Shown piece by piece: positions 15,516 through 30,602 of a DNA stretch of 64,000 nt. The notes beneath the pieces are model-generated. The model was not told the DNA's origin, did not search any database, and was given only the letters and a program-made list of their open reading frames with translations. This DNA comes from Candidatus Latescibacterota bacterium (GTDB lineage: Bacteria > Latescibacterota > UBA2968 > UBA8231), in the NCBI GenBank assembly GCA_965203355.1, contig OZ241889.1, positions 3,936,001-4,000,000 of the forward strand, given 5' to 3'. Numbering within the stretch: the stretch's first letter is position 1; each line of letters opens with the position of its first letter. The translations under genes and the position numbers were made by a program.

Positions 15516-15902
15516 ATGTGGCTAAATACCGAAAATGCACCCGTGCTGACGCAAGCGGATAAAATTCTCGCGCTCGTCGTGGGCTTGAGTGCGATCGGGC
15601 TGATACTCTACGGCCGCTATACCGCCGAGGCTGGTGGCGTACTAAGCGTCGAGTTGGCTGGAGCCGCGCCCGCCACGCATGTCCTCTCAGATTACGGGGT
15701 CTTGCCCGTTGTAGGACCTTTGGGCGTGAGCCAGATCGAGATCGGCCCCAAAGGGGTGCGCGTACTTTCCGCACCTTGCGTCCACAAGCTCTGCATGCGG
15801 CGGGGCTGGATGCAGCGGGCCGGCGACGTGGCCGCGTGCGTACCTAATGGCCTAGTATTGAGGATCGCTGGGGCCGCGCCCATAGACGCGATGATTCACT
15901 GA
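15516..15902 (+). CDS. NusG domain II (Lin0431/DUF1312-like) membrane-anchored protein
   Basis: N-terminal TM helix, GPLG..IEI...VRV..APCVHKLCMRRGW...ACVPN. Confidence 0.82.
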   Translation: MWLNTENAPVLTQADKILALVVGLSAIGLILYGRYTAEAGGVLSVELAGAAPATHVLSDYGVLPVVGPLGVSQIEIGPKGVRVLSAPCVHKLCMRRGWMQRAGDVAACVPNGLVLRIAGAAPIDAMIH

Positions 15903-16426
15903 TGTTTGCCCGCCCTAGAGACGTGGCTCGTTTGGGGCTTATGGCCAGTGCGGCAATTGTGCTCTTCGCCTTTGAATCGCTGGTACCCAAACCCTTGCCT
16001 TGGATGAAGCTGGGACTCGGCAACTTGCCGGTTTTGGTCGCGTTAGTGAGCTTTGGTGGCGGTCCAGCATTGGCCGTTAGTGCCATCAAGCTGGTAGTTG
16101 GCGGCTTGCTCAGCGGGGGATTTGCCGGTCCAGCCTTTGTCATTGGCGGCGGGGCTGGCTTGGCGAGTTGGTTGGTCATGGTTGCGGTGCGCCGCATGGG
16201 AGCAGGGCTTTTCAGCGTCGTGGGTCTGAGCATCTGGGGAGCGCTGGCGCACCAACTCAGCCAGCTCGTTCTCGCCGCTGGCTACATCGGCCACAGCGGT
16301 CTGTTCGCGCTTTTGCCGCTGGCCTTGTTCAGTGCCCTAATAAGCGGCGGGACGATCGGCCTGCTGGCTTGGTGGACCTTGGAGCAACTGGAGAAAATAG
16401 GCTGGTTGGACCAAGGCCAGTTATAA
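15902..16426 (+). CDS. Gx transporter family (heptaprenyl-PP synthase component I-like) membrane protein
   Basis: FESLVPKPLPWMKLGLGN and SVVGLSIWGALAHQLSQL motifs; coupled to the NusG-II gene. Confidence 0.85.
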   Translation: MFARPRDVARLGLMASAAIVLFAFESLVPKPLPWMKLGLGNLPVLVALVSFGGGPALAVSAIKLVVGGLLSGGFAGPAFVIGGGAGLASWLVMVAVRRMGAGLFSVVGLSIWGALAHQLSQLVLAAGYIGHSGLFALLPLALFSALISGGTIGLLAWWTLEQLEKIGWLDQGQL

Positions 16427-16455: not shown

Positions 16456-18411
16456 ATGGACCTGCCCAAAAAGCCTACCTTGCAAACCGAACCGGTCTTC
16501 AGCACCAAAGCACTGGTCGCGGGCACCCTAGGGTCGCTGTGCATCGCCGTGGGAGCACCCTACGGCAACATGGTCATCCGCGGCTCCTACATGTCGATTG
16601 ATTTCAGCGCCGCGGGTGCCCTTTTCCTCTTCTTCTTGTTGACGGGCTTATTCAACGCCTTGTTGACGCGCTTTGCCGCTTCTGTGGCCCTCGGACGCTG
16701 CGAACTAATCGTCGCGTACATCATGATGCTCACGGCTTCGGCCATCCCGACGATGGGCCTCAGCGAATACTGGCTGACGATCATCACCGGTGCCCAGTAC
16801 TATGCCACCCCGGAAAACGAATGGGCCTTGCTCATCCTGCCGCACCTTCCCACGTGGATCGCACCGCAGGATCCCGAGGCGATCAAGTGGTTTTACGAAG
16901 GAGCACCTCGCACCACTGGGGTACCTTGGGCCGCTTGGAGCGGCCCGCTGTGCTATTGGACCATTCTGATCGTAGCCCTGTACTTGGTGATGATCTCGTC
17001 CATGGTCATTATGCGCCGCCAGTGGGTGGAGCGAGAGCGGCTGGTTTATCCGCTGGTGCAAGTGCCCTTGGCCATGGTCGAAAGCGGAGGCCGCGGACAG
17101 GCCCTAGGTCCTTTCTTCAAAAATCCAATCATGTGGGTCGGCTTTGCCCTGCCCGTGTTCGTCAGTAGTCTCAACGCCCTACACTCGTATTTCAACTTCA
17201 TCCCCGCCATCCAACTCGTCTCCTCGGTTCCGATCCTGCGCAACACCGTCAGCCTGATCTTCCGCCTGAGCTTTCCCATGATCGGGTTCGCCTATCTGAT
17301 CAACCTCGACATCGCCTTCAGCCTGTGGTTCTTCAACACCATCGCCAAGTTGATCCGAGGAGGGCTGGGAGTTTTAGGGATTGGCAGCACTGAAAAACTC
17401 GTTTACGGCGCTCCCAGCGAGCCAATTCTCGCCCACCAAGGGCAGGGCGCGATGATCGTCTTAGTGCTTTTCGGCCTGTGGGTCGGCCGCGAGCATCTGC
17501 GCGACGTACTGCGCAAAGCATTCCGAGGCGACGACCACATCGACGACAGCGGCGAGATGCTCTCCTATCGGACGGCGGTCTTAGCTTGGCTCTCCGGCGT
17601 CGCAGTCATGACCATCTGGCTGTGGCAGTCTGGCTTGCCGCTGTGGGCGGCCTTTTTGACCCTGATGTTGGCCATCCTTATCTTCGTCGGCTTGACCCGA
17701 GTGGTAGTGGAAGGAGGTGTGGCCGCGGCGGTCGGACCGATGATTTCTCCAACGGTCTTGGTTTCGGCCGTCGGAGTTTCGGCAATCGGCCCGACCGGCA
17801 TGGTCGGCCTCGCATATACCTTCGTGTGGGCGGCGGACATCCGCACCTTTGTCATGGCCTCCTGTGCGCACGGTCTCAAGTTGAGCGAGGGACTAGGCCC
17901 GCGGCTACGTCCGCTCTTTTGGTACATGCTGTTGGCCATTGTCGTTAGCATCGTCGGCTCGGTCGCAGCGATTTTGTACCTCGCCTACGAATACGGCGGC
18001 ATCAACCTCAACGCGTGGTTTTTTGGAGGTGGAACTCGTGCCCCTTTTGATTATATTACCACCAAGTTAAGCGCACCTACCGAGCCAAACATAGATGGTT
18101 GGATTCACACTTTTGTCGGCGGGGGCATCATGGCCCTGCTCATGTGGGCGCGCCAGCAGTTCTTGTGGTGGCCCCTGCATCCCATCGGCTATCCCATTGG
18201 TGCCGTATGGCTGATGGACCAGTTGTGGTTTAGCATTGCCATCGCTTGGCTCTTAAAGTTGTTGGCAATGAAATACGGTGGGCCCAGCCTTTTTCGCCGG
18301 GTACGTCCCTTTTTTCTAGGCTTGATCATAGGCCAGTTTTTCATCGCGGGACTCTGGTTGATTATCGACTTTTTTACGGGCATGACCGACAATGTGGTCT
18401 TCTGGATCTGA
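16456..18411 (+). CDS. DUF6785/DUF6784-type multi-pass membrane protein (OPT-like)
   Basis: 651 aa, many TM segments, RRQWVERERLVYPL, WWPLHPIGY and KYGG..LFRRVRPFFLGLIIG motifs. Confidence 0.75.
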   Translation: MDLPKKPTLQTEPVFSTKALVAGTLGSLCIAVGAPYGNMVIRGSYMSIDFSAAGALFLFFLLTGLFNALLTRFAASVALGRCELIVAYIMMLTASAIPTMGLSEYWLTIITGAQYYATPENEWALLILPHLPTWIAPQDPEAIKWFYEGAPRTTGVPWAAWSGPLCYWTILIVALYLVMISSMVIMRRQWVERERLVYPLVQVPLAMVESGGRGQALGPFFKNPIMWVGFALPVFVSSLNALHSYFNFIPAIQLVSSVPILRNTVSLIFRLSFPMIGFAYLINLDIAFSLWFFNTIAKLIRGGLGVLGIGSTEKLVYGAPSEPILAHQGQGAMIVLVLFGLWVGREHLRDVLRKAFRGDDHIDDSGEMLSYRTAVLAWLSGVAVMTIWLWQSGLPLWAAFLTLMLAILIFVGLTRVVVEGGVAAAVGPMISPTVLVSAVGVSAIGPTGMVGLAYTFVWAADIRTFVMASCAHGLKLSEGLGPRLRPLFWYMLLAIVVSIVGSVAAILYLAYEYGGINLNAWFFGGGTRAPFDYITTKLSAPTEPNIDGWIHTFVGGGIMALLMWARQQFLWWPLHPIGYPIGAVWLMDQLWFSIAIAWLLKLLAMKYGGPSLFRRVRPFFLGLIIGQFFIAGLWLIIDFFTGMTDNVVFWI

Positions 18412-18428
18412 GAAAGGCACCTACAATT

Positions 18429-21400
18429 ATGCCTAAGTTCGCGATACAGTGGATGGCCTTCGGCTGGATTTTAGTCGGCGCAGCACCGGCTTGGACCGAA
18501 GTCGATTTTGCTGAATTGGCGCACGCGGCCCCGGTCGAGCGCGTCCGGCAGACAATGGACACTTTTGCCGGCTTGGGGTCTAGAGTCGCCGGCTATCGAG
18601 GTGCCGACCAAGCAGCCCAGATCGTGCAGGAACGCTTCCGCGCCATCGGCCTCGCCGACGTTACAGTCCACGAATACGATGTCTCTATTCCGGTCGATAA
18701 GGGCGGATTTCTGCAAGTAGTTGGCAGCGACGAACAAGTGCCCATCCACGGCCTGTGGCCCAACCTCGTCAAAACCTCGACGCTGCCCGAAGGCGGGGTG
18801 ACCAAGCGCTTGATTGACGCGGGCGCGGGTGAGTACGCAGACATGGACGGCAAGCAAGTCGAGGGGGCCGTGGCCCTGATGGACTTCAACTCGGGCGACG
18901 CTTGGCTCAATGCTGCTTATCTCGGGGCGCAAGCTATCATCTTTATCGAGCCGGACTCCACTGTGTACTTGGAGGGCGAAAAGAAATTTCTCTCCATGCC
19001 GCTCGACCTGCCGAGGTTTTGGGTCAATCGCCAAGTCGGTCAGCGCTTGCGTCGCCAGTTGGCAACCGAGGGAGAGCAAACGCTCCATCTACAGTACCGC
19101 ATGGATTGGGAGCGGCGTCCTGCTTGGAATATCCTCGGCACGATCCCCGGATACGATCCTTTGCTAAAAGAAGACGTGATCGTGCTAGAGGCGTACTACG
19201 ACGCCATGTCCGTTGTTCCGGCCCTTGCCCCAGGGGCCGAGCAAGCCTCCGGCATTACTGCGCTGTTGGAACTGGCGCGCTATTTCCGCGAAAATCCACC
19301 GGCGCGCACGGTCGTATTCCTCGCCACCTCGGCCCACCACCTAGGCTTGCGCGGGGTTGATGACTTCATCCAGCGCTATTTGCGCAAAGAGGACCCGTTC
19401 ATCGAGCACATGCTAGTGAGGCGGGTCGTCGATGCTGCTCTCGCGCGGAACATGATCGCCCAAGACGGCATCCACTACGCCATCGGCGAGGAGCAGTTCA
19501 CCGGTAAGGAAGCCCTGGTGCGGGGCGTTGCCGAAGGGCGCACCGACTTGGCCGAGCGCGTTGCCGACGCGGCCTTCGCCGAAGGCCTACTGAGCCAAGA
19601 AGGAGGCGCACTACACCTCGCCGACGAGCAATTCAAAGATCACCGCGCGCTAGTGGACGAACTGCGCTCGGACGACGACTTGCGACTCGAGCTCTTCAAA
19701 ACTTGGGTCGATCCCAAAGTCGATTCGCTCGCGGTCAAGCTCTTTATCAGCCTCGACCTTTCGTCGCAGACCGACGAACTCGGAGTGTGGAATAGCAATA
19801 CCAGCTTTTACTACAAGCGATACTTCGCGCCCTTCGGCAAGAACTTCATGGCCTATGCGCGCAAGATCAGCCGCGCGTTGGATTACCAGCGACGCGATGT
19901 ACTGGTCAATGGCATTAGTCCCGAAGGCGGGATGAGCTGGCAGACCTTTGTACCGGGTGAAATATCGGTCAACAGCGAATTGGTGTTGGCGACCGGTACG
20001 CCGGCATTGGCTTTTGTCACGGTCAACGACGCGCGCTTTCTCGTCGATACGCCCTTAGACCGGGCCGAGCACGTCAACTACGCCAATCTCGCCAAACAGA
20101 TCCGGGTGCTCGCTGGCATGTTCGAGATGGCCTTTGAAGACCCAGAGCTTTTCCCGGACTTCAAGATGCGCTTGCGCGACACGCTGCGCTCGCTGCGCGG
20201 CCGGACCATGGTTTTTCCGCGCCGCAGCATCATCCCCGACCTGCCGCGTACAGACGCCGTAGCCGTGGTGCGCAACGGCAAGAAAAAGTCGTATAAAGGC
20301 GTGCGCGGCGAGTACTACGAAGTCGTCGATGACAAAGGAGCCTTCTACGTAAATCGGGTGCGGGTCAACAACGTGCAGATCGAGGGCTACTACATGGACC
20401 CGATCACCGGCCGCATCACCTACGCCCCCGACCGCGGCGTGCAAGGCGACGAAAGCTACCCCATGCGGGTCGCCATGGACTGGCGCGACAAGCAATGGAT
20501 GGTCATCCTCTTCCCCTGCGTGCCCTACAATTTCTTCGACATCGTCGATCCGCGCTATTTGACCAAGCTGTCCAACGTGCAGGTCTTCGACGAGACCAAC
20601 AGCGCACCCGTGGAGTACGGTTATACCATCGGCGAAGGCCCCTCGGCCCAAAACGAGCCGGTCGGGGTGCTCTTTGCGCGGCCCGGTTCGCACATCAAGA
20701 TGGGGTTCGGGGCTGGCCTGCTGGGATTCCGCTCGCTCCTGCTCAACGCCACCAGCGTAACCGACAAGGAAAAAGCCGAGGGCGAGGGTTTTGAGATTCG
20801 CCCCGGCACTTCCTTTGCCCGCACGACCTTTCAAGCCGCCCAAGACATGTGGAATCTCAACGAGTCGCGCATGCGCGAGTTGCGGAGCTTTGCCATTGAA
20901 AACCAGCGCCTCAACGACCTCCACTACCGAGCCGAAGCCGAGTTAGCCCAAGCCGCCGAGGCCGAGGCCGAGCAGCGCTGGGGCGATTTCGTGCGCCACA
21001 CGCGCGCGGCCTTCGGGCTGGAGTCGCGTGCCTACCCAGACGTCAAATCCACTCAAAACGACGTCGTTCAGGGCATTATCTTCTTCATGGCCCTTGTCAT
21101 TCCCTGCGCCTTTTTCACCGAGCGGCTCATTTTTACGGCCGCCACGATCCGCAATCAAATCATCGGCTTTTCCGGGGTTTTCCTAGCGATCTGGATCGTG
21201 TTGTGGCTGGTGCATCCGGCCTTTCAACTATCCAATCCCTTCGTCATCCTGCTTGCTTTCATCATCATCGCCTTGGCCCTGCTGGTGATGTCGATCATCT
21301 CCGGCCGTTTCAACGAACAGATGAAGAAGCTGCGCACCGAGGTAGCCGTGATCCACGACACGGACGTCAGCCGCTCTTCGGCCTCGCTGACGGCCTTCCA

Positions 21401-23180
21401 GCTTGGGATTTCCAACATGAAGCGGCGCAAGACGCGCACGATGCTCACCTTTACCACGCTCTTGCTGCTGACGTTTACGGTGCTCTCTTTCACCTCCATC
21501 CGCACGGGCTTGCGGTTCAACCAAATCAGCCGCGACAACGAGGGTCTCTACGAGGGCATCCTCATCCGCAGTAAGGCGTGGAATCCCATGGAGGATTCGG
21601 TCCTCGAATACGCCCGCAGCAATTTCGGCGATCGCGCCGCAATCGCGCCGCGCAGTTGGTACAGCAACAAAGCCAAAGCACACATCAAAATAAAGCACGG
21701 GGAAAAGGCCCATAACGCGCTCGGCGTCCTAGGTTTAGCGCCCGAGGAAACTCAGGTCACTCGGCTCAACCAAGCCCTAGTTGCCGGGCGCTGGTTTGAA
21801 CCGGGCGAAGACAAGGTCTGCATCCTGCCCATCGACATGGTTAAAGAAGCTCATCTCGATGTCGATTTGGCCGACATTGGCCAAGCGCAAGTAAGGGTCT
21901 TCGGCAACTTGTTCACGGTGGTCGGCGTCATCGACTCTAAGCGCATGAAGGACCTCAAAGACCTCGACGACGAGATCCTAACACCGGCCGACTTCGCCGT
22001 CACCGGTGGCCAAGCGGTGCAGGAAATAGCCGAGGAAGAACAGCGCGAAAAGCAAGGGCTGGAGGACGCTAAGGTCGTCGTCAAGCCCTTCGTCCACATA
22101 GAGCCAGCCAACACCCTGATTATTCCCTACCATACGCTGCGCAACATCGGCAGTGGTAATCCCTTGCAGTCGGTAGCCGTGCGCTTCCCGGAAAGCAGTG
22201 ATGTACGCGGCGAGGTTGAGGAGTTCCTCTCGCGCCTCGCCGTGACGCTGTTCGCCGGCGTCAAGGAGGCTGGCGACGAATACATCAAGGTGTCGATCTA
22301 CTCGTCGCTGGGCATGACCTCCTTTTCCGGGATGAGCAACTTGTTCATCCCCATGCTGATTGCCTCGCTTATCGTACTCAACACCATGATGGGCAGCGTG
22401 TACGAGCGCTTCCGCGAGATCGGTATTTACTCTTCGGTCGGCCTAGCCCCGGGCCATATCTCTTGGCTCTTTATCGCCGAGAGTTGCGTCTATTCGGTGC
22501 TGGGCGTAGTCGCCGGTTATCTCAGCGGCCAAGTAATCGCCAAAGTGCTCATCGAATCGGACCTTTTGGGCGGCTTCACGCTCAACTACTCCTCGGTCGC
22601 CGCGGTGCTTTCCTGTATGCTGGTGATGGCCGTGGTCATGCTCTCGACGATTTATCCAGCGCGCAAGGCTTCGCAGATGGCCGTGCCAGACGTGACCCGC
22701 AAGTGGAAATTGCCAACGCCCGACGGCGACCAGTGGGATTTCGAGTTCCCCTTTACAGTCAGCGGCCACGAGGTCTTGGGCTTGAGCGTGTTCCTCATCG
22801 GCTACTTCGACTCCTACAGCGAAGAGTCCATCGGCACCTTCTATACCGACGGTGCCCAGCTAAGCCGCGAAGGAACGCCCAACGGCGAAGGATACATTAT
22901 CGACATGAATATCTGGCTGGCCCCTTTCGACTTGGGCGTCAGCCAACACGTCACCGTGCGGGCCATGCCAGAGGCCGAGCACAATATTTACGCGGTCAGC
23001 CTACAAATCAAGCGACTCAGCGGCGAGGACGCCTCGTGGCGGCGGGTCAACCAGCGCTTCATGAACGTCATCCGCAAACAGTTCCTCATCTGGCGCACGG
23101 TGGATACCGAGGCCAAGGAAGGCTATCGCCAACAGGGCGCGGAAATTCTGCAAGGGCTGCGCAGCGAAGTGTCGGCGTAA
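18429..23180 (+). CDS. Giant fusion: PA/M28-like ectodomain + TM bundle + MacB-type periplasmic core + FtsX permease + C-terminal domain
   Basis: Signal peptide; SRVAGYRG and NILGTIPG; EAYYD..APGAEQASG..LLELAR; SNMKRRKTRTMLT; GSVYERFREIGIYSSVGLAP..FIAES; IYPARKAS. Confidence 0.85.
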   Translation: MPKFAIQWMAFGWILVGAAPAWTEVDFAELAHAAPVERVRQTMDTFAGLGSRVAGYRGADQAAQIVQERFRAIGLADVTVHEYDVSIPVDKGGFLQVVGSDEQVPIHGLWPNLVKTSTLPEGGVTKRLIDAGAGEYADMDGKQVEGAVALMDFNSGDAWLNAAYLGAQAIIFIEPDSTVYLEGEKKFLSMPLDLPRFWVNRQVGQRLRRQLATEGEQTLHLQYRMDWERRPAWNILGTIPGYDPLLKEDVIVLEAYYDAMSVVPALAPGAEQASGITALLELARYFRENPPARTVVFLATSAHHLGLRGVDDFIQRYLRKEDPFIEHMLVRRVVDAALARNMIAQDGIHYAIGEEQFTGKEALVRGVAEGRTDLAERVADAAFAEGLLSQEGGALHLADEQFKDHRALVDELRSDDDLRLELFKTWVDPKVDSLAVKLFISLDLSSQTDELGVWNSNTSFYYKRYFAPFGKNFMAYARKISRALDYQRRDVLVNGISPEGGMSWQTFVPGEISVNSELVLATGTPALAFVTVNDARFLVDTPLDRAEHVNYANLAKQIRVLAGMFEMAFEDPELFPDFKMRLRDTLRSLRGRTMVFPRRSIIPDLPRTDAVAVVRNGKKKSYKGVRGEYYEVVDDKGAFYVNRVRVNNVQIEGYYMDPITGRITYAPDRGVQGDESYPMRVAMDWRDKQWMVILFPCVPYNFFDIVDPRYLTKLSNVQVFDETNSAPVEYGYTIGEGPSAQNEPVGVLFARPGSHIKMGFGAGLLGFRSLLLNATSVTDKEKAEGEGFEIRPGTSFARTTFQAAQDMWNLNESRMRELRSFAIENQRLNDLHYRAEAELAQAAEAEAEQRWGDFVRHTRAAFGLESRAYPDVKSTQNDVVQGIIFFMALVIPCAFFTERLIFTAATIRNQIIGFSGVFLAIWIVLWLVHPAFQLSNPFVILLAFIIIALALLVMSIISGRFNEQMKKLRTEVAVIHDTDVSRSSASLTAFQLGISNMKRRKTRTMLTFTTLLLLTFTVLSFTSIRTGLRFNQISRDNEGLYEGILIRSKAWNPMEDSVLEYARSNFGDRAAIAPRSWYSNKAKAHIKIKHGEKAHNALGVLGLAPEETQVTRLNQALVAGRWFEPGEDKVCILPIDMVKEAHLDVDLADIGQAQVRVFGNLFTVVGVIDSKRMKDLKDLDDEILTPADFAVTGGQAVQEIAEEEQREKQGLEDAKVVVKPFVHIEPANTLIIPYHTLRNIGSGNPLQSVAVRFPESSDVRGEVEEFLSRLAVTLFAGVKEAGDEYIKVSIYSSLGMTSFSGMSNLFIPMLIASLIVLNTMMGSVYERFREIGIYSSVGLAPGHISWLFIAESCVYSVLGVVAGYLSGQVIAKVLIESDLLGGFTLNYSSVAAVLSCMLVMAVVMLSTIYPARKASQMAVPDVTRKWKLPTPDGDQWDFEFPFTVSGHEVLGLSVFLIGYFDSYSEESIGTFYTDGAQLSREGTPNGEGYIIDMNIWLAPFDLGVSQHVTVRAMPEAEHNIYAVSLQIKRLSGEDASWRRVNQRFMNVIRKQFLIWRTVDTEAKEGYRQQGAEILQGLRSEVSA

Positions 23181-23193
23181 GGGAGGATAGCGA

Positions 23194-25617
23194 GTGCTCG
23201 GAAGGAAAAATAGAAACCCGAACCAAGAGATAGAAGAATATCGGGATCTAATGCAGGTCCCGGACCGCTTCGAGAACGGCTTTACGATCAAGGCTATACT
23301 CGGTGTGTTCTTCGTCGCCTTCATCATGGTGCCGGGCAACATGTACTTAAGCCTGATGATCGGCGGCTCTTTGGGGGCCGCGGCCGAGTGGGTGACCATC
23401 ATCCTCTTCGCCGAAATCACCAAGCGCTCCTTCTCCTCCCTCCGGCGCCAAGAAGTCTATGTGTTGTTCTACGTGGCTTCCTCGCTGATCGCCGCGGAGA
23501 CCGGCGCCTTTGAGGGCTTGCTCTACAACCAGTACTTGGTGCAATCGCCGGCGGCCAAGCAGTTCGGCATAACCAATCTGATCCCCACTTGGGTGGCGCC
23601 GCCGGCCGACTCCCTCGCCATCATCGAGCGCACCTTCCTGCACTCGGATTGGGCGATGCCGATCGTCCTCCTAGTCTTGGGGATGATCATCTCGCGCATC
23701 AACTGGTTCACGATGTCGTACGCGCTCTTCCGGCTTAGTTCCGACTACGAGCGCCTGCCCTTTCCCTTCGCGCCCGTAAACGCCCAAGGAGCTACGGCAC
23801 TGGCCGAGACCACCCAAGGGGTTGAGACGTGGCGCTGGCGCGTATTTTCGGCCGGGGCGATGATCGGCTTGGTCTTTGGCACGATCTACGTGGCCCTGCC
23901 GGCGATTACGGGCGCACTGCTGACCGAGCCGATCCAACTCATACCCATTCCCTTTATCGATTTCACGCAAGTTACCGGCAACTTCATCCCGGCCACTCCG
24001 CTGGGATTTTCTGCACACTTGGGGCCGGTGTTCACCGGGCTAGTGGTCCCATTCTGGGGCGTGGTCGGCACCTTTATCGGCGTGGTCGTCGCCTCAATCG
24101 CCAATCCGCTGCTCTATACTTGGACGCCGCCGTGGCGCGAGGACGAGGGGCCTTACCTGAACTTGTGGCAGCAAGGCATGGGCACGGTCGAGACCTTTTT
24201 CGTCAACAACGTCGATTTCTGGATGAGTTTCGGCATCGGCACCACCATCGCCATCGCCGTCATCGGCATCTATCAGGTGTTTCAGAGCGTGCGCAGTGCT
24301 AGGGCCAACGCCGGGAATGAAGGCGAGCCCAAGCGCAGTTTCGCCACGCCAGTGGGCCGGGGCGATTTCCCCATCTGGCTGGCGCTGGCCCTATACGCCT
24401 TGGCCACGGCTGGCCTGATAGGCATCGCCGCTTGGCTGCTGCCGGGCATTGCCCAATTTATATGGTTTTTCCTCTTTTTTGGTTTTGTATTTACGCCCTT
24501 TCAATCCTTTGTCAACGCCCGCCTAGTCGGGATGGTGGGGCAGACGGTGGACATCCCCTTCGTGCGCGAGGCCACGATTATCTTCTCTGGGTATCGCGGC
24601 GTTGACATCTGGTTCATTCCGTTTCCCTTGGGCAACTACGGTGCCCAAACCATGAAGTTCCGCGAAATCGAACTGACCGGCACCCAGTTTACTAGCATCA
24701 TCCGCGCCGAGATTTTCATGGTGCCCATCGTGCTCTTTACCAGTTTTCTCTACGGCTCCTATATCTGGAAACTGGCACCGATCCCCTCGGCCTCCTATCC
24801 CTATGCCCAGCTAATCTGGCGGCTGCGCGCCTACCAGCAATGCCTCTTTATCACCGGCACCATGCGCAGCGAACTAGCCATAGACAATGATCGGGCGGGA
24901 TGGACCCCGGCTAACCTGATTGAAAACGAGTGGTGGTACTGGCGGGTGCGGCTAGTGGATCAGGAGTGGCTGGATTCCAACGGCAAGCGCGGCCAAGTCG
25001 GTCGGTGGATGCCGACCCAAGTTTTCTACTCGTACTTCGAGCAAGGGGCGCCCGACATCGTCGCCGAGCGCTATCTGCGCGACGACCCGCTATCTGAGGA
25101 AGTTGTCGAGGGGCTACCGGCCATTGCGCCACTAAGGCCGACTATGGACGCCGTCATCCGCACCCCCCGCCCGACGCTCGAAGTGCAGGTTGAGCGGGCC
25201 GTGCCAGCGGGATGGTCCTTCTACTTTGAAGTGGATACCGATCCGCTCTTTACCAGCTCTTGGATCCAGCGTTCCACCGATGAGCCTTGGCTCTTTAAGG
25301 CCCTGAAAGAAGAGGTCATCGCCTTTGGTGCTGTCTTTGGGCTGGTGAGTTTCATTCTGCTGTCCATTCTCGGGCTGCCGATCCTGCTGATCTTTGGCTT
25401 CGTGCGCTCGCTGACGACCTTGCCGCATTTCGTGGTGACTGAGATCGTCGGTGCGCTCTTGGCCCGCTACTACTTTTGGAACAAGTACGGGCGGCAGGAA
25501 TGGCGGCAGTTTGCCCCCATTCTGGCCGTGGGCTTTTCCTGCGGCATGGCATTGATGGGGATGGCGTCGGTGGGGATCGCCCTGATCCAGAAATCGGTCT
25601 CCGTGTTGATCTTTTAG
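23194..25617 (+). CDS. OPT-superfamily-like multi-pass membrane protein with an extracytoplasmic insertion
   Basis: 807 aa, many TM segments, ERLPFPFAPV motif, IPSASYPYAQLIW; GTG start with GGGAGG RBS. Confidence 0.72.
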   Translation: MLGRKNRNPNQEIEEYRDLMQVPDRFENGFTIKAILGVFFVAFIMVPGNMYLSLMIGGSLGAAAEWVTIILFAEITKRSFSSLRRQEVYVLFYVASSLIAAETGAFEGLLYNQYLVQSPAAKQFGITNLIPTWVAPPADSLAIIERTFLHSDWAMPIVLLVLGMIISRINWFTMSYALFRLSSDYERLPFPFAPVNAQGATALAETTQGVETWRWRVFSAGAMIGLVFGTIYVALPAITGALLTEPIQLIPIPFIDFTQVTGNFIPATPLGFSAHLGPVFTGLVVPFWGVVGTFIGVVVASIANPLLYTWTPPWREDEGPYLNLWQQGMGTVETFFVNNVDFWMSFGIGTTIAIAVIGIYQVFQSVRSARANAGNEGEPKRSFATPVGRGDFPIWLALALYALATAGLIGIAAWLLPGIAQFIWFFLFFGFVFTPFQSFVNARLVGMVGQTVDIPFVREATIIFSGYRGVDIWFIPFPLGNYGAQTMKFREIELTGTQFTSIIRAEIFMVPIVLFTSFLYGSYIWKLAPIPSASYPYAQLIWRLRAYQQCLFITGTMRSELAIDNDRAGWTPANLIENEWWYWRVRLVDQEWLDSNGKRGQVGRWMPTQVFYSYFEQGAPDIVAERYLRDDPLSEEVVEGLPAIAPLRPTMDAVIRTPRPTLEVQVERAVPAGWSFYFEVDTDPLFTSSWIQRSTDEPWLFKALKEEVIAFGAVFGLVSFILLSILGLPILLIFGFVRSLTTLPHFVVTEIVGALLARYYFWNKYGRQEWRQFAPILAVGFSCGMALMGMASVGIALIQKSVSVLIF

Positions 25618-25618
25618 C

Positions 25619-26611
25619 ATGAGCGGCTCGGTGGATTTCGCTTGGCAAGGGTTGCGGCTGTCCGTGCCCGACGATTGGAACCTCGGCCGAGTTGACGGGG
25701 ATTTTGAAAAGGGCTATGCCCGCCTCGACGACGCCGAAATCGTCCGCGCCGAGATCGAATGGCGGCGGCTCAAAGGCCGCGGCGAAGCCCTGCGTCTGAC
25801 CGAGTTGGTAGATCGCTATCTGGCCAACTTGCGAAAGAAGGCCCAAAAGGTCGATGCTCCCTTTGAGGTTCAACGCCGCGCCCGATTCCTCAAAAACAAG
25901 AAGTTCCTCGCCGGCCGCGAATACGAGGTCTTCACTTGGGAGGCCGACTTCCGCGCGTACAACCTAGCACTCGCCTTAGAGTCCGGGCGCGTAGTGCTCC
26001 TGAGAGTGCTGGCCAAGTTAGACGAGTTTTTGCCCGAGCAAGCCGAGGCCGTGTTCAGCTCGCTCGTCGATCAAGAAGGCGAGGCCGCGCATCTGTGGAG
26101 CGTGTATGGCTTGCGGTTCTTCGCGCCCAACGACCTCAAGCTACAAAGCCACTCCCTCAAGTCGGGCCACATCGAGCTAGCGTTTTCCCTCGGCAAACAA
26201 GTTCTAAAGGTACATCGTTTGAGTATGGCCCGGATCATGCTCAAAGACGCGCACATTCAAGACTGGTATCCAGTTTTTTTTAAGAAGCAATTGCGCGATT
26301 TCGTGGTGGATATTACTCCAGAAGCCGTGCGGGAACACGAGGGCATTCGCATCGAGGGGCGGCCGCGCAGCCGCTGGCGTCAACTACTGCGACCCCTGCC
26401 CTTTATGAACCCGAGGCCGCGCCTGTACATGCGGGGGCGCGTCTGGCGCGATACCAGCATCGACAAAATCGCCATCGTCGAGCACCTCTATCGCAAAAAA
26501 AACGCAGCAGACGATCTAGTCGCCAAGGTAGTAGATGGGCATTTTATCGAAAAACAAGGGACCCAAGCTGAGTCGGGCCGCCATGCTGGCGTCGCGGCCA
26601 ACGCGCAATGA
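25619..26611 (+). CDS. Conserved hypothetical soluble protein with an internal two-fold repeat
   Basis: 330-aa ORF starting 1 nt after the upstream stop; repeats FAWQGLRLSVPDDW and WSVYGLRFFAPNDL. Confidence 0.7.
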   Translation: MSGSVDFAWQGLRLSVPDDWNLGRVDGDFEKGYARLDDAEIVRAEIEWRRLKGRGEALRLTELVDRYLANLRKKAQKVDAPFEVQRRARFLKNKKFLAGREYEVFTWEADFRAYNLALALESGRVVLLRVLAKLDEFLPEQAEAVFSSLVDQEGEAAHLWSVYGLRFFAPNDLKLQSHSLKSGHIELAFSLGKQVLKVHRLSMARIMLKDAHIQDWYPVFFKKQLRDFVVDITPEAVREHEGIRIEGRPRSRWRQLLRPLPFMNPRPRLYMRGRVWRDTSIDKIAIVEHLYRKKNAADDLVAKVVDGHFIEKQGTQAESGRHAGVAANAQ

Positions 26612-26966
26612 GTCCCTGCACTGGGAAAACAACGACAACGGCGAGGTCCAGGTCTCAATAAAGCGCCAAGATACCTATAAGGTGCGGTTGTTGTCCAAGT
26701 TTTTCTACATTCCCAAGCAGCGCAAAATCACCCTCGACGAGGTCGGCAGCGAGGTCTGGCGGATGTGCAATGGCCGCAACTCGGTCGGCAGGATGATCGA
26801 GGAACTCAGCGACAAGTACCAACTCAATCGCAAGGAGGCCGAGGTCTCCCTGCTCCAGTATTTGAAGACCCTTGGGCAGAAGCGCTTTATCGGTTTTGTG
26901 TTAGAAAGCGACGAGAGGCCACCCGGTCGCGGCGCGGCCAGCGGAAAAAAATGGCAAAAAAAATAA
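26535..26966 (+). CDS. PqqD-family (RiPP recognition element-like) protein
   Basis: ITLDEVGSEVWRMCNGRNSVGRMIEELSDKYQL..EAEVSLLQYLKTLGQKRFI winged-helix RRE pattern. Confidence 0.85.
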   Translation: MGILSKNKGPKLSRAAMLASRPTRNESLHWENNDNGEVQVSIKRQDTYKVRLLSKFFYIPKQRKITLDEVGSEVWRMCNGRNSVGRMIEELSDKYQLNRKEAEVSLLQYLKTLGQKRFIGFVLESDERPPGRGAASGKKWQKK

Positions 26967-27571
26967 ACAAAGGAGAGCAATTAGCTCGTCCCTTGTTTCT
27001 TCTGCACCCGCACCAAATCGCACGCTTTTTCTCCCATTTACTCAATCCCGCGCTGTTGGCACTCTTAGTCTTCGGCGTCCAAGCGCACGTGTTGGGCGAC
27101 TGGCTCGCCGGCTCGGTGGCGATCGGCATCTTCTCCTTGGTTCCCGGACTGTTACTCTGGTATTTGGTGCGCTCGGGCTATCTCGACAAAGCCTATACAG
27201 ACGACCGCAAAAAACGCGCTACTCTGCTCTTGCTGGGCGTCCTGTGCTATGCCTTGGGGAGTGCGGCCCTCTACGGGATCGGAGCCCCGCGCCTGATGCT
27301 GGTCACGGCCGCGTCCTGTGCCGTCAACGCGCTCTTGGTTTGGTGGATCAATCGCTCCTATAAGATCAGTATTCACGCGGCTGGTGTCGGCGGGGCAACC
27401 TGTGTATTGTTGATCAGCGTCGGCAGCGCGGCGTGGCCCTTCTTGTTCAGTTGGCCGACCGTCGCTTGGGCGCGGCTTTACTTGCGGGCACATACTCCCA
27501 TGCAGATCGGCGCGGGCGGTGCGCTGAGCGCGGGGAGTATGGCCCTGCTGTACCGTGTTTTCATCTGGTGA
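26951..27571 (+). CDS. PAP2-like membrane protein
   Basis: Hydrophobic, with KISIHAAG and WARLYLRAHTPMQIGAG motifs. Confidence 0.7.
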   Translation: MAKKINKGEQLARPLFLLHPHQIARFFSHLLNPALLALLVFGVQAHVLGDWLAGSVAIGIFSLVPGLLLWYLVRSGYLDKAYTDDRKKRATLLLLGVLCYALGSAALYGIGAPRLMLVTAASCAVNALLVWWINRSYKISIHAAGVGGATCVLLISVGSAAWPFLFSWPTVAWARLYLRAHTPMQIGAGGALSAGSMALLYRVFIW

Positions 27572-27580
27572 GTGCAGCAC

Positions 27581-29755
27581 ATGAACCAATCGTATAAGGG
27601 CTTTATAGATCGCCTGACCTACCACAACCCGGAAAACGGCTATACCATCGCGCGCTTAGTAATAGAGGGCCAGCGCGAGCGTATCGCCATTGTGGGGACG
27701 CTTGCCTCCATCCAAGAGGGCGAGAGCGTCGAAGTCGAAGGCGTGTGGACCAATCATCCCAAATACGGCAAACAGCTCAAGGTAGAGCACTATAAAGCCG
27801 TTTATCCCTCGACCCTTGAAGGTATGCAAAAGTACCTCGGGTCCGGTTTGATCAAAGGCATCGGGCCGCGGTCGGCCAAGCGCATTGTCGACCACTTTGG
27901 CGCGGAAACGATCGACATCATCGACGCGGATCCTCACCGGCTAGAGGAAGTCCCCAAGCTGGGCAAGAAGAAAGTCGAACTGATCGCCGAGGCCTGGGAT
28001 GAGCAGCGGCAAATCAAGGATGTGATGGTCTTTTTGCAATCGCACGGGATTACCACCGGCTACGCAGTGAAAATTTTCAAGACCTACGGCCAAGAGGCCA
28101 TCCAGAAGGTGCGCAGCGATCCCTATCGCCTAGAGCGCGATGTGGATGGGATCGGCTTCCGCATCGCCGACCGCATTGCCCAGCGCTTGGGCCTGGGCCA
28201 CGACGCACCCGAGCGCGTACAGGCCGGTATTCGCTACCTGCTCTCCGAAGCGACCGACGAAGGCCATGTGTACCTGCCGGCTGTCGAAATGATGGAACGG
28301 GCCGTCGAAATTTTGGCGATCGACGCCGAATCGCTGCCGCCAGCATTGGAGGCCCTGCGCGCCTCCGACGGCGTGGTCACCGAAGACTTGCGCTACTATC
28401 TGCCGCCACTCCACCGCGCCGAAGTGGGCACCGCATCGTCGCTAAAGCGGCTTCTACAAGCACCGGCCGAAGAATTGGCTGTGCCCGCAGAAGCAGAAGA
28501 CGAGCTGGAATTGGCTCCGGCGCAAAGACAGGCCGTGGAACTAGTGGCCACCAGCAAGGTACTGGTGCTGACCGGCGGTCCGGGTACGGGCAAGACCACG
28601 GTCACTCGGCGCATCTTGCGCCTGTTGGAGGAAGGTGGCCTCAAGGTCGCGCTGTGCTCGCCTACGGGCCGCGCCGCCAAGCGGCTGAGCGAGGCCAGCG
28701 GGCGCGGGGCCAAGACCATTCATCGGCTGCTCGGATTTCAGCCGGGCGAGCGGCAATTCAAAAAGGGCTACGACGACCGCCTCGAAATCGACGCGCTGAT
28801 CGTCGATGAGGCTTCCATGATCGACGTGGTACTGATGAACGCGCTCCTGCGCGCCCTACCCGATCACGCTCGGCTGGTGCTAGTCGGCGACATTGACCAA
28901 CTGCCCTCGGTGGGGCCGGGCAACATGCTCCGCGACATCATCGACTCTGCTGAAGTGCCGGTGGTGCGTCTGACGCAGATTTTTCGCCAAGCGCAAAGAA
29001 GCCACATCATCCGCAACGCGCACCGCATCAACAGCGGCGAAATGCCTATCGTCGAGAACCAAGCGGACGCGGATTTCTACTTCATCCAAGCAGGTGACCC
29101 AGAGCGGGTGGTCGAGTTGGTGGAGGAGTTGTGCGCCACGCGGCTACCCAGCTATCGGCGATGGGACCGGCGCAACGACATCCAAGTGCTTGCGCCCATG
29201 TACCGCGGCGAAACTGGCGCACTCAACCTCAACCAGCGGCTGCAACAGCGCCTCAACCCGCACGGCCAAGCACATGGCCATCGCGGGGCTGAGTTCCGGG
29301 TGGGCGACAAGGTCATGCAGGTCAAAAACAACTACGACAAGGGCGTTTTTAACGGCGACATCGGCGCGATCGAGCGGCTCGACGCAGAAAAGCAGCTACT
29401 CTACGTGCGCTTTGACCACACTTTGGAATACGATCAAGTCGATCTCGACCAGCTAACCCTCGCCTACGCCATCAGCATCCACCGCTCTCAAGGCTCGGAA
29501 TTCCCCGTGGTGGTGCTGCCGCTGACGACGCAGCACTACGTGATGCTTCAGCGCAACCTGCTCTACACGGCGATTACCCGCGCCAAGCAAATGGTCGTCA
29601 TCGTCGGTACCCTCAAGGCCCTCAAGCTGGCCATTGCCAACGATAAGGTCGCCCAGCGCTATACCACGCTCAAGGAGCGGCTGCGCGGCGAGGTCGGTAC
29701 GGTGATGGAAGCGGGGCAAGCCATCCCATTGGAATCAACACTGCCGAGCGATTGA
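27581..29755 (+). CDS. recD2: ATP-dependent RecD2 helicase
   Basis: YLGSGLIKGIG, GGPGTGKT, SPTGRAAKR, DEASMID, GDIDQLPSVGPG, AYAISIHRSQGSEF and LYTAITRAK. Confidence 0.96.
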   Translation: MNQSYKGFIDRLTYHNPENGYTIARLVIEGQRERIAIVGTLASIQEGESVEVEGVWTNHPKYGKQLKVEHYKAVYPSTLEGMQKYLGSGLIKGIGPRSAKRIVDHFGAETIDIIDADPHRLEEVPKLGKKKVELIAEAWDEQRQIKDVMVFLQSHGITTGYAVKIFKTYGQEAIQKVRSDPYRLERDVDGIGFRIADRIAQRLGLGHDAPERVQAGIRYLLSEATDEGHVYLPAVEMMERAVEILAIDAESLPPALEALRASDGVVTEDLRYYLPPLHRAEVGTASSLKRLLQAPAEELAVPAEAEDELELAPAQRQAVELVATSKVLVLTGGPGTGKTTVTRRILRLLEEGGLKVALCSPTGRAAKRLSEASGRGAKTIHRLLGFQPGERQFKKGYDDRLEIDALIVDEASMIDVVLMNALLRALPDHARLVLVGDIDQLPSVGPGNMLRDIIDSAEVPVVRLTQIFRQAQRSHIIRNAHRINSGEMPIVENQADADFYFIQAGDPERVVELVEELCATRLPSYRRWDRRNDIQVLAPMYRGETGALNLNQRLQQRLNPHGQAHGHRGAEFRVGDKVMQVKNNYDKGVFNGDIGAIERLDAEKQLLYVRFDHTLEYDQVDLDQLTLAYAISIHRSQGSEFPVVVLPLTTQHYVMLQRNLLYTAITRAKQMVVIVGTLKALKLAIANDKVAQRYTTLKERLRGEVGTVMEAGQAIPLESTLPSD

Positions 29756-29831: not shown

Positions 29832-30602
29832 CTAGGCATCTTCTGCGACGAGGAGCGTATGCACCCCGGTCTCGTCCCCTCTTTGCTGGTCTTGCGGTTG
29901 GATGCGACAGCCGACCACCACCGCCAATGTATCCTGTAAAAAAACTGCGCTCAGGGCATCAGCCGCCTGCCGGGCCCGTTCCAAGTCGCGTTGGCTGATG
30001 GCGTTGGACACCTCCACGGCTACCCACACCGACGTGCGGTTCACCTGGTGCTGGGCCCGGATGATCAGGTCGGTCGCATTAATGCGCGTTTCTTGCCCGT
30101 CGTCAATGACTCCCCTATCAAAGGCTTCTTCCACCGGATCAAACAATTCTGGATGGGTATCTTGGACTGGACTTTGCAGAACCTGCGCCCGACGCAAGCC
30201 CAGCCGTTGGCTGAGCAGCGGTCGAATCCGCCGATAGATCTTCACTTCCAAACTGTCGCCTTTGAGTGCAGCCACATCCGTCTTGAGGACGGCCACATCT
30301 GTCTTGAGGACAGCCACATCCGTCTTGAGGACGGCCACATCTGTCTTGAGGACGGCCACATCTGTCTTGAGGACAGCCACATCTGTCTTGAGGACGGCCA
30401 CATCTGTCTTGAGGACAGCCACATCTGTCTTGAGGACAGCCACATCGGCCTCTATGCGCTCCAAGCGAATGGGCATGCCGAGGAACTCGTTAGTCAACAA
30501 GGCTCGCAACAACAAGGTCTGGGCTTCGGGGTCGGCTTGTAACTCAGCGATGATGCGATCGACCAAGGACTCGGAATCACGGAAAGAGGATGTCGTAGTC
30601 AT
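29832..30602 (-). CDS. Heptad-repeat coiled-coil protein with a PD-(D/E)xK-like C-terminal domain
   Basis: (VAVLKTD)x8, then DLIIRA...WVAVEVS. Confidence 0.72.
   Translation of the reverse strand: MTTTSSFRDSESLVDRIIAELQADPEAQTLLLRALLTNEFLGMPIRLERIEADVAVLKTDVAVLKTDVAVLKTDVAVLKTDVAVLKTDVAVLKTDVAVLKTDVAVLKTDVAALKGDSLEVKIYRRIRPLLSQRLGLRRAQVLQSPVQDTHPELFDPVEEAFDRGVIDDGQETRINATDLIIRAQHQVNRTSVWVAVEVSNAISQRDLERARQAADALSAVFLQDTLAVVVGCRIQPQDQQRGDETGVHTLLVAEDA
30271..30446. repeat. 21-bp intragenic tandem repeat, ~8.4 units
   Basis: gccacatc(t/c)gtcttgaggac(a/g) repeated 8 times, varying only at synonymous sites. Confidence 0.97.

Follow-up and report, generated by a model that had tools for sequence, protein, structure and literature searches.

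Type VII ABC systems are understood as transmitters of force in the outward direction, and OPT proteins as stand-alone secondary importers. Here we analyzed a stretch of 64,000 nucleotides, referred to below as the window, from the genome of a Candidatus Latescibacterota bacterium (assembly GCA_965203355.1, contig OZ241889.1, positions 3,936,001 to 4,000,000, forward strand), in which five adjacent genes, g1 to g5, code for proteins resembling parts of both kinds of system. MacB and FtsEX are described as mechanotransmitters, which use ATP in the cytoplasm and perform their work outside the membrane (PMC5985334, PMC11491553). The engine type of the system at this locus is already known; what is new is its permanent coupling to OPT-like permeases, to a pseudo-peptidase head and to a pair of a PsbP-like and a PqqD-like protein.

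We infer that the products of g1 to g5 and an engine, made of an ABC ATPase and a small FtsX protein, very probably assemble physically into one ABC-based machine. The explanation which is favoured overall, at a probability just short of even, is a type VII ABC machine of the inner membrane with OPT-like permeases, used for the ATP-assisted import of peptides or similar oligomers. The cluster, along with the gene that follows it (g6), is made up as given below.

16456-18411, + strand: g1, 651 aa, polytopic membrane protein with DUF6785 and DUF6784, OPT-superfamily-like
18429-23180, + strand: g2, 1583 aa counted from the ATG, giant with M28-like, MacB_PCD and FtsX parts
23194-25617, + strand: g3, 807 aa, membrane protein, putatively a divergent member of the OPT superfamily
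25619-26611, + strand: g4, 330 aa, predicted tandem PsbP/Mog1-like protein
26535-26966, + strand: g5, 143 aa, PqqD-like (RRE-type) small cytoplasmic protein
26951-27571, + strand: g6, 206 aa, PAP2-like by a weak match

The genes are separated by gaps of 17, 13 and 1 nt and then overlap by 77 and 16 nt; the ORF coordinates, together with a reading of the g1/g2 junction, agree in full with the six co-oriented frames described in an earlier note on this DNA, which was made from the sequence alone. The g2 frame is already open from a TTG at 18246, ahead of its ATG start. The N-terminus of g5, which is coded inside the 77-nt overlap with g4, is kept across lineages (M1, L18, P22), and the overlap is therefore taken as real.

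The extent of the unit was read from distant relatives. Metagenome contigs were scanned with a 13-sequence alignment (A2) of mid-distance g3 relatives, and the best 80 of 536 relatives were used; the g3 relatives which anchor these 80 loci are about 45% identical to the query P0134. The window proteins were then compared by phmmer with all ORFs of the 80 loci, many of which are short, so that the counts are lower bounds. Besides g3 itself (80/80), matches were obtained for g1 in 46 loci, for g5 in 33 and for g4 in 27, the last number rising to 37 with a profile from alignment A3; for the giant g2 they were obtained with its C-terminal domain in 58 loci, its FtsX core in 56, its extra helices in 45 and its N-terminal head in 37. 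Not one of the 80 loci gave a phmmer match for g6 or for the flanking genes of the window, which code for a NusG_II-domain protein, an Hpre_diP_synt_I membrane protein and RecD2. The gene directly upstream of g3 is g1-like in 32 loci and g2-like in 37, together 69 of the 72 loci having at least 300 nt upstream, and at least two gene orders occur, namely g4-g5-smallFtsX-ATPase-giant-g3 and smallFtsX-ATPase-giant-g1-g3...g4-g5. Because g1 to g5 persist in distant lineages while g6 and the flanks vanish, the conserved unit is g1 to g5, and g6 and the flanks are neighbours in this lineage only. The earlier note had taken all six genes as one unit, of which five hold together and g6 drops out; its expectation that relatives of the genes would be found clustered in other genomes is borne out for g1 to g5 by these metagenome loci. 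The module is near-universal in Latescibacterota and is present also in Poribacteria, Lentisphaerota and Desulfobacterota, the last including cultured Pseudodesulfovibrio strains.

Close relatives were scanned with one genome per species, which gave 43 loci, nearly all labelled Latescibacterota, with some Gemmatimonadota and one Poribacteria, and with g2 identities of up to 97% (in the genome G001). By tblastn the whole stretch from the NusG_II gene to RecD2 is syntenic throughout the lineage, and such close synteny cannot define a functional unit because the unrelated flanks are equally conserved there. In several close loci g6 is split from g5 by an insertion of 1.5-2 kb. Separately, in two loci (L028 and L040) g3 lies about 9 kb and about 6.4 kb farther from g2 than usual, which implies an insertion between g2 and g3.

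That NusG_II, Hpre_diP_synt_I and RecD2 are as syntenic as the cluster within Latescibacterota means that gene order can persist without function, and it leads to the explanation that there is no single machine at all, the cluster being a set of independent membrane proteins (an orphan FtsX, two OPT-like transporters and a stray PqqD) held together by inherited order or shared regulation. This explanation, to which the dispensability of g1 at the locus in four relatives and the stand-alone position of most DUF6785 paralogues also lend something, is very improbable in our estimate, since in distant lineages the flanks are gone and g1 to g5 persist in at least two gene orders. Two independent fusions tell in the same direction. 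One is a 2135-aa protein of G001 (L125 3597-10004, contig C1 at about 5.33 Mb), which carries a head containing CarboxypepD_reg, followed by MacB_PCD, FtsX, DUF6785 and DUF6784, and naturally joins the two membrane partners in one chain; the other is a 459-aa protein at the distant locus L051, in which g4 and PqqD are joined.

The paralogues give further evidence against independence. G001 holds seven giants, counted as open frames with a single FtsX domain and a length of 1479 aa or more, a number equal to the seven matches of the C-terminal-domain profile. For each of the seven a DUF6785 gene is either fused or lies no more than about 5 kb away; a g3 paralogue is near in five of them. The triad of giant, DUF6785 protein and g3 is one of 5-7 paralogous sets per genome, and g4, PqqD and the family-specific small FtsX each occur as a single copy in G001. 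As a separate observation, one paralogous set of G001 has a Fic/DOC-family gene (L126 6599-7594) placed between the giant paralogue and its DUF6785 partner.

The phylum was then surveyed with an even sample of 150 genomes, several of which are small fragments, and in which relatedness inflates the agreement. A g4 gene is present in 131 of them, effectively as a single copy (two genomes gave two matches each, from fragments), and the C-terminal domain of the giant, searched with the A5 profile, is present in 136, with 1-9 copies each. Both were found in 130 genomes, neither in 13, the giant domain alone in 6 and g4 alone in 1. The phylogenetic profiling which the earlier note had proposed for all six genes was thus run for g4 and the giant domain, and these two are co-present or co-absent in 143 of 150 genomes, again opposing the view of unconnected genes.

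The distant loci also hold two genes having no counterpart in the window. One, immediately upstream of the giant, codes for an ABC ATPase, and the other, ahead of the ATPase gene, for a second, small FtsX protein (224-507 aa); both were confirmed by Pfam in L053, L109 and L051. Among the giants with at least 1.1 kb upstream, a strict rule found the ATPase directly upstream in 23 of 26 cases, and the small FtsX before the ATPase in 20 of those 23, the three apparent misses being over-long ORF calls. An ATPase is present in the remaining three of the 26 loci as well, lying downstream of g3 (L044), upstream of a split giant (L058) or behind an over-long ORF call (L062). Loci of the first gene order given above carry a second ATPase gene after g3. 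The in-operon ATPases score best with the LolD, MacB, DevA and FtsE models, all below the equivalog cut-offs.

No ATPase of the LolD/MacB/FtsE type was found in the 64-kb window, where the sole ABC_tran protein is a type I exporter (39158-41449). In each of the genomes G001 to G003 there is one outstanding match to the small FtsX, with 48-49% identity and E ~1e-32. In G001 this 233-aa small FtsX stands beside a 256-aa ATPase at 1.35 Mb and the cluster lies at 2.60 Mb, 1.25 Mb apart. Compared with the in-operon ATPases, the unlinked one shares 69% identity with that of L109 and 59% with that of L053; between the small FtsX proteins of G001 and L109 the full-length identity is 45%. Judging from these close relatives, the window cluster appears to supply the substrate side of a type VII ABC system, the engine of which would be coded elsewhere. 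The earlier note, which treated the cluster as it stands, had overlooked that it is incomplete, the ATPase and small FtsX being in the operon in other lineages and at a distant locus in G001. As judged from sequence, the engine has the marks of a type VII ABC system, with an FtsX bundle, a periplasmic core domain and, in relatives, a cognate ATPase.

The giant g2 is divided as follows.

18429-19391, + strand: residues 1-321, signal peptide and extracytoplasmic PA/M28-like putative pseudo-peptidase (Pfam, YwaD alignment)
19392-21056, + strand: residues 322-876, extracytoplasmic, with no recognisable family (no Pfam match)
21057-21317, + strand: residues 877-963, three extra transmembrane (TM) helices before the MacB-type core (hydropathy scan)
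21438-22679, + strand: residues 1004-1417, MacB-type core with TM1, periplasmic core domain and FtsX three-helix bundle (Pfam)
22689-23180, + strand: residues 1421-1583, family-specific C-terminal domain, presumably cytoplasmic (alignment A5)

Hydropathy gives the order signal peptide, about 870 extracytoplasmic residues, three helices, TM1 (1004-1024), core domain, FtsX bundle (1298-1412) and a soluble tail of about 165 residues. Three domains pass the Pfam cut-offs: Peptidase_M28 (PF04389; E 8.4e-10, 39.1 bits against a cut-off of 21.3, over profile positions 1-79 of 193 only), MacB_PCD (E 3.1e-07, 31.3 bits against 27, residues 1004-1195, with TM1 at 1004-1024) and FtsX (PF02687; E 2.5e-15, 57 bits against 25.5, residues 1306-1417). 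NCBIfam returned ADOP, MacB and LolCE models, all sub-threshold, and an Atlas search with residues 320-875 returned the protein's own cluster only. The C-terminal domain has 12 invariant columns over the 39 sequences of alignment A5. A relationship of this domain with g4 was considered and rejected (BLASTP E 0.13, hhalign probability 0.2).

Residues 47-321, PA domain included, align with the PA-domain aminopeptidase YwaD (6hc6) with E 6.8e-10, and the second half of the M28 domain gave no alignment. At the metal and catalytic positions of YwaD the first zinc-ligand His is replaced by Tyr, the bridging Asp by Glu, and the Glu-Glu pair by His-His. Across 41 giants of all lineages the zinc-ligand His occurs only in the paralogue of L126, the Asp position holds E, D or R, and the Glu-Glu pair occurs in none. 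The M28 domain of g2 is, on this alignment, a predicted pseudo-peptidase lacking the two-zinc ligand set and the catalytic Glu, and the description of the domain as pseudo-M28 in the earlier note is upheld by YwaD and the 41 homologues alike.

A non-catalytic M28 domain would also suit a receptor, and this brings in the explanation that the giant is a sensor, which in the manner of BceAB-type FtsX permeases detects an extracellular peptide or polymer and signals inward, the output running through g4-g5 and, where a lineage has one nearby, through a partner-switching set of STAS protein, RsbW-like kinase and SpoIIE phosphatase. Genes of this kind do lie beside g4-g5 on the opposite strand in the 80 loci (STAS in 17, RsbW-like HATPase_c_2 in 12, cNMP-binding in 11 and MASE10-HAMP-SpoIIE in 5), but neither the window nor the Latescibacterota loci have them, most layouts lack them too, and the core is not accompanied by any conserved kinase or regulator. 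Sensing would hardly account for two large OPT-like permeases or for 5-7 paralogous sets in each genome, and we consider this explanation improbable. For the record, a partner-switching-like set placed just past g4-g5 can be seen at L073, L108, L096 and others among L044-L123.

Regarding the membrane partners, g1 matches DUF6785 (E 1.6e-124) and DUF6784 (E 1.1e-31) in Pfam; g3 has no match in Pfam or NCBIfam even at E 10, and neither protein matches the OPT family (PF03169) even at E 10. An HMMER search with g3 gave 959 clusters of relatives (50% identity) at E<=1e-3. The Pfam OPT cut-off is passed by 4 of 22 distant g3 relatives found by phmmer, some of them over almost the whole profile (P0227 spans positions 12-618 of 623), and also by the protein of L053. 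The names given by NCBI to g3 relatives from Pseudodesulfovibrio, Desulfovibrio sp. Fe33, Syntrophobacteraceae and Lentisphaerota are 'peptide transporter' or 'OPT family oligopeptide transporter', and the Atlas points g3 to the same label. A g1-type profile (A4) aligns with the g3 family (A1) over 585 columns by hhalign, with probability 97.4 and E 1e-11; a direct BLASTP of g1 against g3 is not significant (E 1.3), the relationship being visible by profiles only. Profile comparison thus identifies g1 and g3 as homologous, divergent proteins of the OPT superfamily which would not be members of PF03169. The 'OPT-like' label of the earlier note can be kept for both at the superfamily level, and for g3 its support is transitive, passing through those relatives which lie above the OPT cut-off.

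A soluble insertion at about residues 530-700 of g3 is lineage-specific, and in relatives the same site holds a PDZ domain (P0121) or Reg_prop repeats (P0124, P0141). Genome-wide, DUF6785 was counted 46 times in G001 (6.4 Mb), 27 in G002, 58 in G003, 24 in G004 (a 3.5-Mb Poribacteria MAG, i.e. metagenome-assembled genome) and 9 in G005, and it was found in none of 14 model genomes. As an aside on distribution, archaea have members of the family as well, a MAG of a Brockarchaeota archaeon being the recorded source of a remote relative of g3 in the P0207 cluster (29% identity).

For g4 no match was found in Pfam or NCBIfam even at E 10. Its single-sequence fold was unusable (pLDDT 33), and it was refolded with the 36-sequence alignment A3, which gave an AlphaFold2 model of pLDDT 85.8 and pTM 0.81. 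By Foldseek this model resembles TplEi/Tli4, two-domain immunity proteins of type VI secretion (T6SS), over its full length with both halves (E 5e-6 to 1.6e-5, probability 1.00), and PsbP with each half (E 3e-5 to 6e-4, probability 1.00 for many PsbP chains). The hydropathy scan finds neither a signal peptide nor a hydrophobic segment. The model presents g4 as a probable cytoplasmic tandem PsbP/Mog1-like protein, an alpha/beta sandwich taken twice, with the likeness at fold level only; the two repeats claimed in the earlier note correspond to its two confidently modelled halves.

The g5 protein matches PqqD (PF05402) with E 1.5e-10 and 41.7 bits against a cut-off of 23.4, as the earlier note had assigned it. 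Its nearest NCBIfam models, all below cut-off, are the lasso, GeoRSP and PQQ chaperones, which attend peptides in maturation pathways. Both the window cluster and the genes that recur nearby at the 80 loci lack any radical SAM, YcaO, lasso B2/C or PqqE-type gene, small precursor ORFs not having been searched for. At the 29 informative loci g4 is always directly upstream of g5, and three further g5 genes are too close to a contig end. A predicted complex of g4 and g5 with the g2 C-terminal domain scored 0.00 (mark 0.32) in a run having no controls, which speaks neither for nor against binding. The claim of the earlier note that all these proteins form one membrane complex handling peptides can accordingly be divided: the complex is favoured by the conserved module and the two fusions, and 'peptide-handling' was drawn from family names only, with no maturase beside g5.

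In the machine as we propose it, the giant g2 would be one half of a heterodimeric FtsX-type permease, its partner being the small FtsX of about 233 aa along with an ATPase of the LolD/MacB/FtsE type. ATP hydrolysis in the cytoplasm would act through the FtsX helices on the extracytoplasmic head of g2 (about 870 residues), so that, by analogy with the described mechanotransmitters, giant, small FtsX and ATPase may move the pseudo-M28 head. This head, made of the dead PA/M28 domain and of further domains of no recognisable family, would be the ligand-binding module. The proteins g1 and g3 would make the membrane path, probably as a hetero-pair, and an OPT-like pair is plausibly the only path across the membrane which the set provides. 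The g4 and g5 proteins would be a cytoplasmic pair acting at the inner face. In this way peptides, or oligomeric nutrients like them, would be captured and imported with the help of ATP. An engine present once per genome, made of ATPase, small FtsX, g4 and g5, would serve several paralogous sets of giant and OPT-like proteins having different specificity, this sharing being deduced.

The direction of transport was approached through the DUF6785 genes which stand away from giants. High-scoring genes of this type were taken from G001 in 14 regions, which hold 20 of the 46 matches, and 91 ORFs were scanned. The neighbours are catabolic enzymes (sulfatase, FGE-sulfatase, a BNR sialidase-like protein, GFO/IDH/MocA and aldo-keto reductases, PhyH dioxygenases, amidohydrolases, an enolase-superfamily enzyme, gamma-glutamyltranspeptidase and sarcosine oxidase), solute-binding proteins and secreted proteins tagged CHU_C. 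The DUF6785 genes occur as tandem pairs three times in the 14 regions, and no FtsX domain was found in any of the 91 ORFs. This hints at the usual setting of an importer, and import is favoured because the DUF6785 setting is importer-like. Further hints of import may be seen in the homology of g1 and g3 and their kinship with OPT, and in the PDZ and Reg_prop inserts of g3 relatives, which would bind ligands. That the machine imports peptide-like nutrients, with both substrate and direction deduced, is still a tentative claim, somewhat below an even chance.

The same parts can be read as an outward machine of export or envelope assembly, in which g4-g5 recognise peptide or peptide-tagged cargo, the OPT-like pair passes it out, and the giant releases it, hands it on or inserts it in the manner of LolCDE or MacB. 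We rate this as rather unlikely, and much of what argues for it also weighs against import. To our knowledge the type VII ABC systems characterised so far all export, extract or transmit force outward, and none imports. Peptide maturation is the known setting of PqqD/RRE proteins and agrees better with export, and g5 has its nearest kin among chaperones of such pathways. A g4 that is single-copy and near-universal in the phylum, in a housekeeping genomic setting, would be expected of a core envelope function no less than of nutrition. The engine pair of G001 (L124 8377-11721) has among its neighbours a TauE-like exporter, a reductase of the RmlD type and two glycosyltransferases of family GT2, and the known logic of type VII systems is outward mechanotransmission (PMC5985334, PMC11491553). 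Some further points count against the favoured machine more generally: the unlinked engine in the lineage of the window rests on the genomes of close relatives, g3 itself is below every Pfam threshold, the g3- and g1-family profiles gave no significant match among PDB sequences, and g1 is missing at its place in L020, L025, L032 and L037, so not every part is obligatory.

Against an outward machine stands the catabolic, not biosynthetic, company of the stand-alone DUF6785 paralogues. Moreover, the 80 loci show no recurrent gene for a precursor peptide, a radical SAM enzyme, a cyclodehydratase or a lasso-type enzyme, nor for a membrane-fusion protein or an outer-membrane factor, small precursor ORFs not having been searched for, and the known members of the OPT family are importers. 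Anti-phage defence and RiPP biosynthesis were set aside, as no nuclease, maturase or precursor gene recurs (a scan with a defence library was not made, nor were small ORFs searched).

Contigs from RNA libraries, with 90-95% identity to the locus, bridge g2/g3 and g4/g5 in two studies and g1/g2 and g3/g4 in one study. They are weakly compatible with expression and co-transcription and prove neither, DNA carry-over being possible. Their summed depth over g2-g5 exceeds that over g1, g6 and RecD2, and it cannot rank the genes; as the runs were chosen using 18000-27600, contig depth sets no operon boundary.

The cluster is flanked as follows.

15516-15902, upstream of g1: NusG_II-domain protein (Pfam)
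15902-16426, 29 nt upstream of g1: Hpre_diP_synt_I membrane protein (Pfam)
27572-29755, abutting g6 with zero gap: RecD2

The first two ORFs overlap by 1 nt. Tight co-oriented spacing thus runs past g1 and g6 on both sides and cannot by itself delimit the unit, because NusG_II/Hpre_diP_synt_I and RecD2 are as tightly packed and co-oriented. Between 15000 and 30000 a promoter scan gave 3 promoter-like sites against 5.3 expected, and a terminator scan gave intragenic sites in every case; both are uninformative. The remaining window is housekeeping, with Rho, DnaG, Mur ligase, RelA/SpoT, DnaE, glycolysis genes and ATP synthase.

The PAP2 assignment of g6 is weak. The window protein itself is sub-threshold (E 0.15, 12.3 bits against a cut-off of 27.2), and all 14 orthologues match at E<=1, the best with 2.3e-5, so the 'PAP2-like' name given by the earlier note stands only as a faint likeness. 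PAP2 proteins carry the motifs KX6RP / PSGH / SRX5HX3D; in the g6 orthologues S140, H142, R175 and H181 are invariant, and the first motif is not evident. No match of g6 was found in the PDB.

Two other ORFs near RecD2 may be recorded. One of 256 aa (29832-30602, - strand) contains a 21-nt unit repeated 8.8 times at 30262-30446 with 93% matches, which encodes a heptad of the VAVLKTD type, and in Pfam it gave only sub-threshold Macoilin. The other, just beyond RecD2 (30882-35516, - strand), codes for a helicase-nuclease of 1544 aa with DUF4011, AAA_11/AAA_12, an MTES_1575 restriction-endonuclease-like domain and DUF3320.

A search of the full-text literature, in which subscription journals were not covered, found no paper on DUF6785, on DUF6784 or on the combination of FtsX, PqqD and OPT, in line with the statement of the earlier note that no characterised pathway has this composition. 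Among the matches listed for MacB/FtsX mechanotransmission there is no mention of M28, and one paper mentions Latescibacteria and OPT in passing. A conserved and sometimes fused partnership of a type VII ABC system with OPT proteins would be a new design principle of membrane transport. If the proposal is true, it would be the first importer on the MacB/FtsX architecture and would give the first function for DUF6785, of which there are dozens of copies per genome in Latescibacterota and Poribacteria; roles would be assigned to DUF6785, DUF6784, the g3 family, the g4 family and the C-terminal domain of the giant. The expansion of DUF6785 beside catabolic genes suggests a role in the feeding of these poorly known bacteria, which are often associated with sponges or sediments, and the presence of the module in cultured Pseudodesulfovibrio makes it testable at the bench.

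Compared with known systems part by part, g4 shares its fold with TplEi/Tli4 over both halves and with PsbP per half; the sequence identity is 9-17%, however, g4 is predicted to be cytoplasmic, and its context gives no hint of type VI secretion. The PqqD domain of g5, above the Pfam cut-off, is like that of the PqqD/RRE chaperones of RiPP pathways, but g5 has no nearby maturase and it is constantly partnered by the tandem PsbP-like g4 and by an ABC/OPT-like set. Pseudo-M28 ectodomains are present in nicalin, nicastrin and the transferrin receptor, and the head of g2 resembles these as an M28-like fold at the outer face of the membrane which has lost metal and catalytic residues, presumably for binding; it differs in being bacterial, in having a PA domain as in active YwaD and in being fused to an ABC permease, and the match to nicalin is only E 0.0074. 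ADOP permeases (TIGR03434) are orphan and multiplied, and g2 is likewise an FtsX-type permease with no adjacent ATPase and several copies per genome; its sub-threshold match of 35.8 bits is far below the cut-off of 622 bits, and an ADOP chain has two FtsX modules against one in g2.

With the OPT family (PF03169) the likeness is that g3 relatives reach the cut-off over nearly the whole profile and that g1 is homologous to g3 from end to end; the differences are that g1 and g3 have no PF03169 match, that g1 falls in the separate models DUF6785 and DUF6784, and that the two are paired beside an ABC system. With type VII ABC systems (MacB, LolCDE and FtsEX) the giant shares the four-helix FtsX topology, in which TM1 and TM2 enclose a periplasmic core domain, the operons of relatives code for a separate LolD/MacB/FtsE-like ATPase, and, as with LolC and LolE, there are two different FtsX-type permease genes. 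Unlike them, the giant bears an extracytoplasmic pseudo-M28 head (about 870 residues), three additional helices and a C-terminal domain (about 165 residues); there is no recurrent membrane-fusion or outer-membrane partner, the association with the OPT superfamily is constant and in one case a fusion, and the lineage of the window has an unlinked ATPase and several copies of the giant. It is conceivable, although doubtful, that these features define a hybrid class, in which a type VII ABC mechanotransducer would power or gate uptake permeases of the OPT superfamily and, as with TonB and its many receptors, a single engine would drive interchangeable sets of giant and OPT-like proteins, each with its own binding head.

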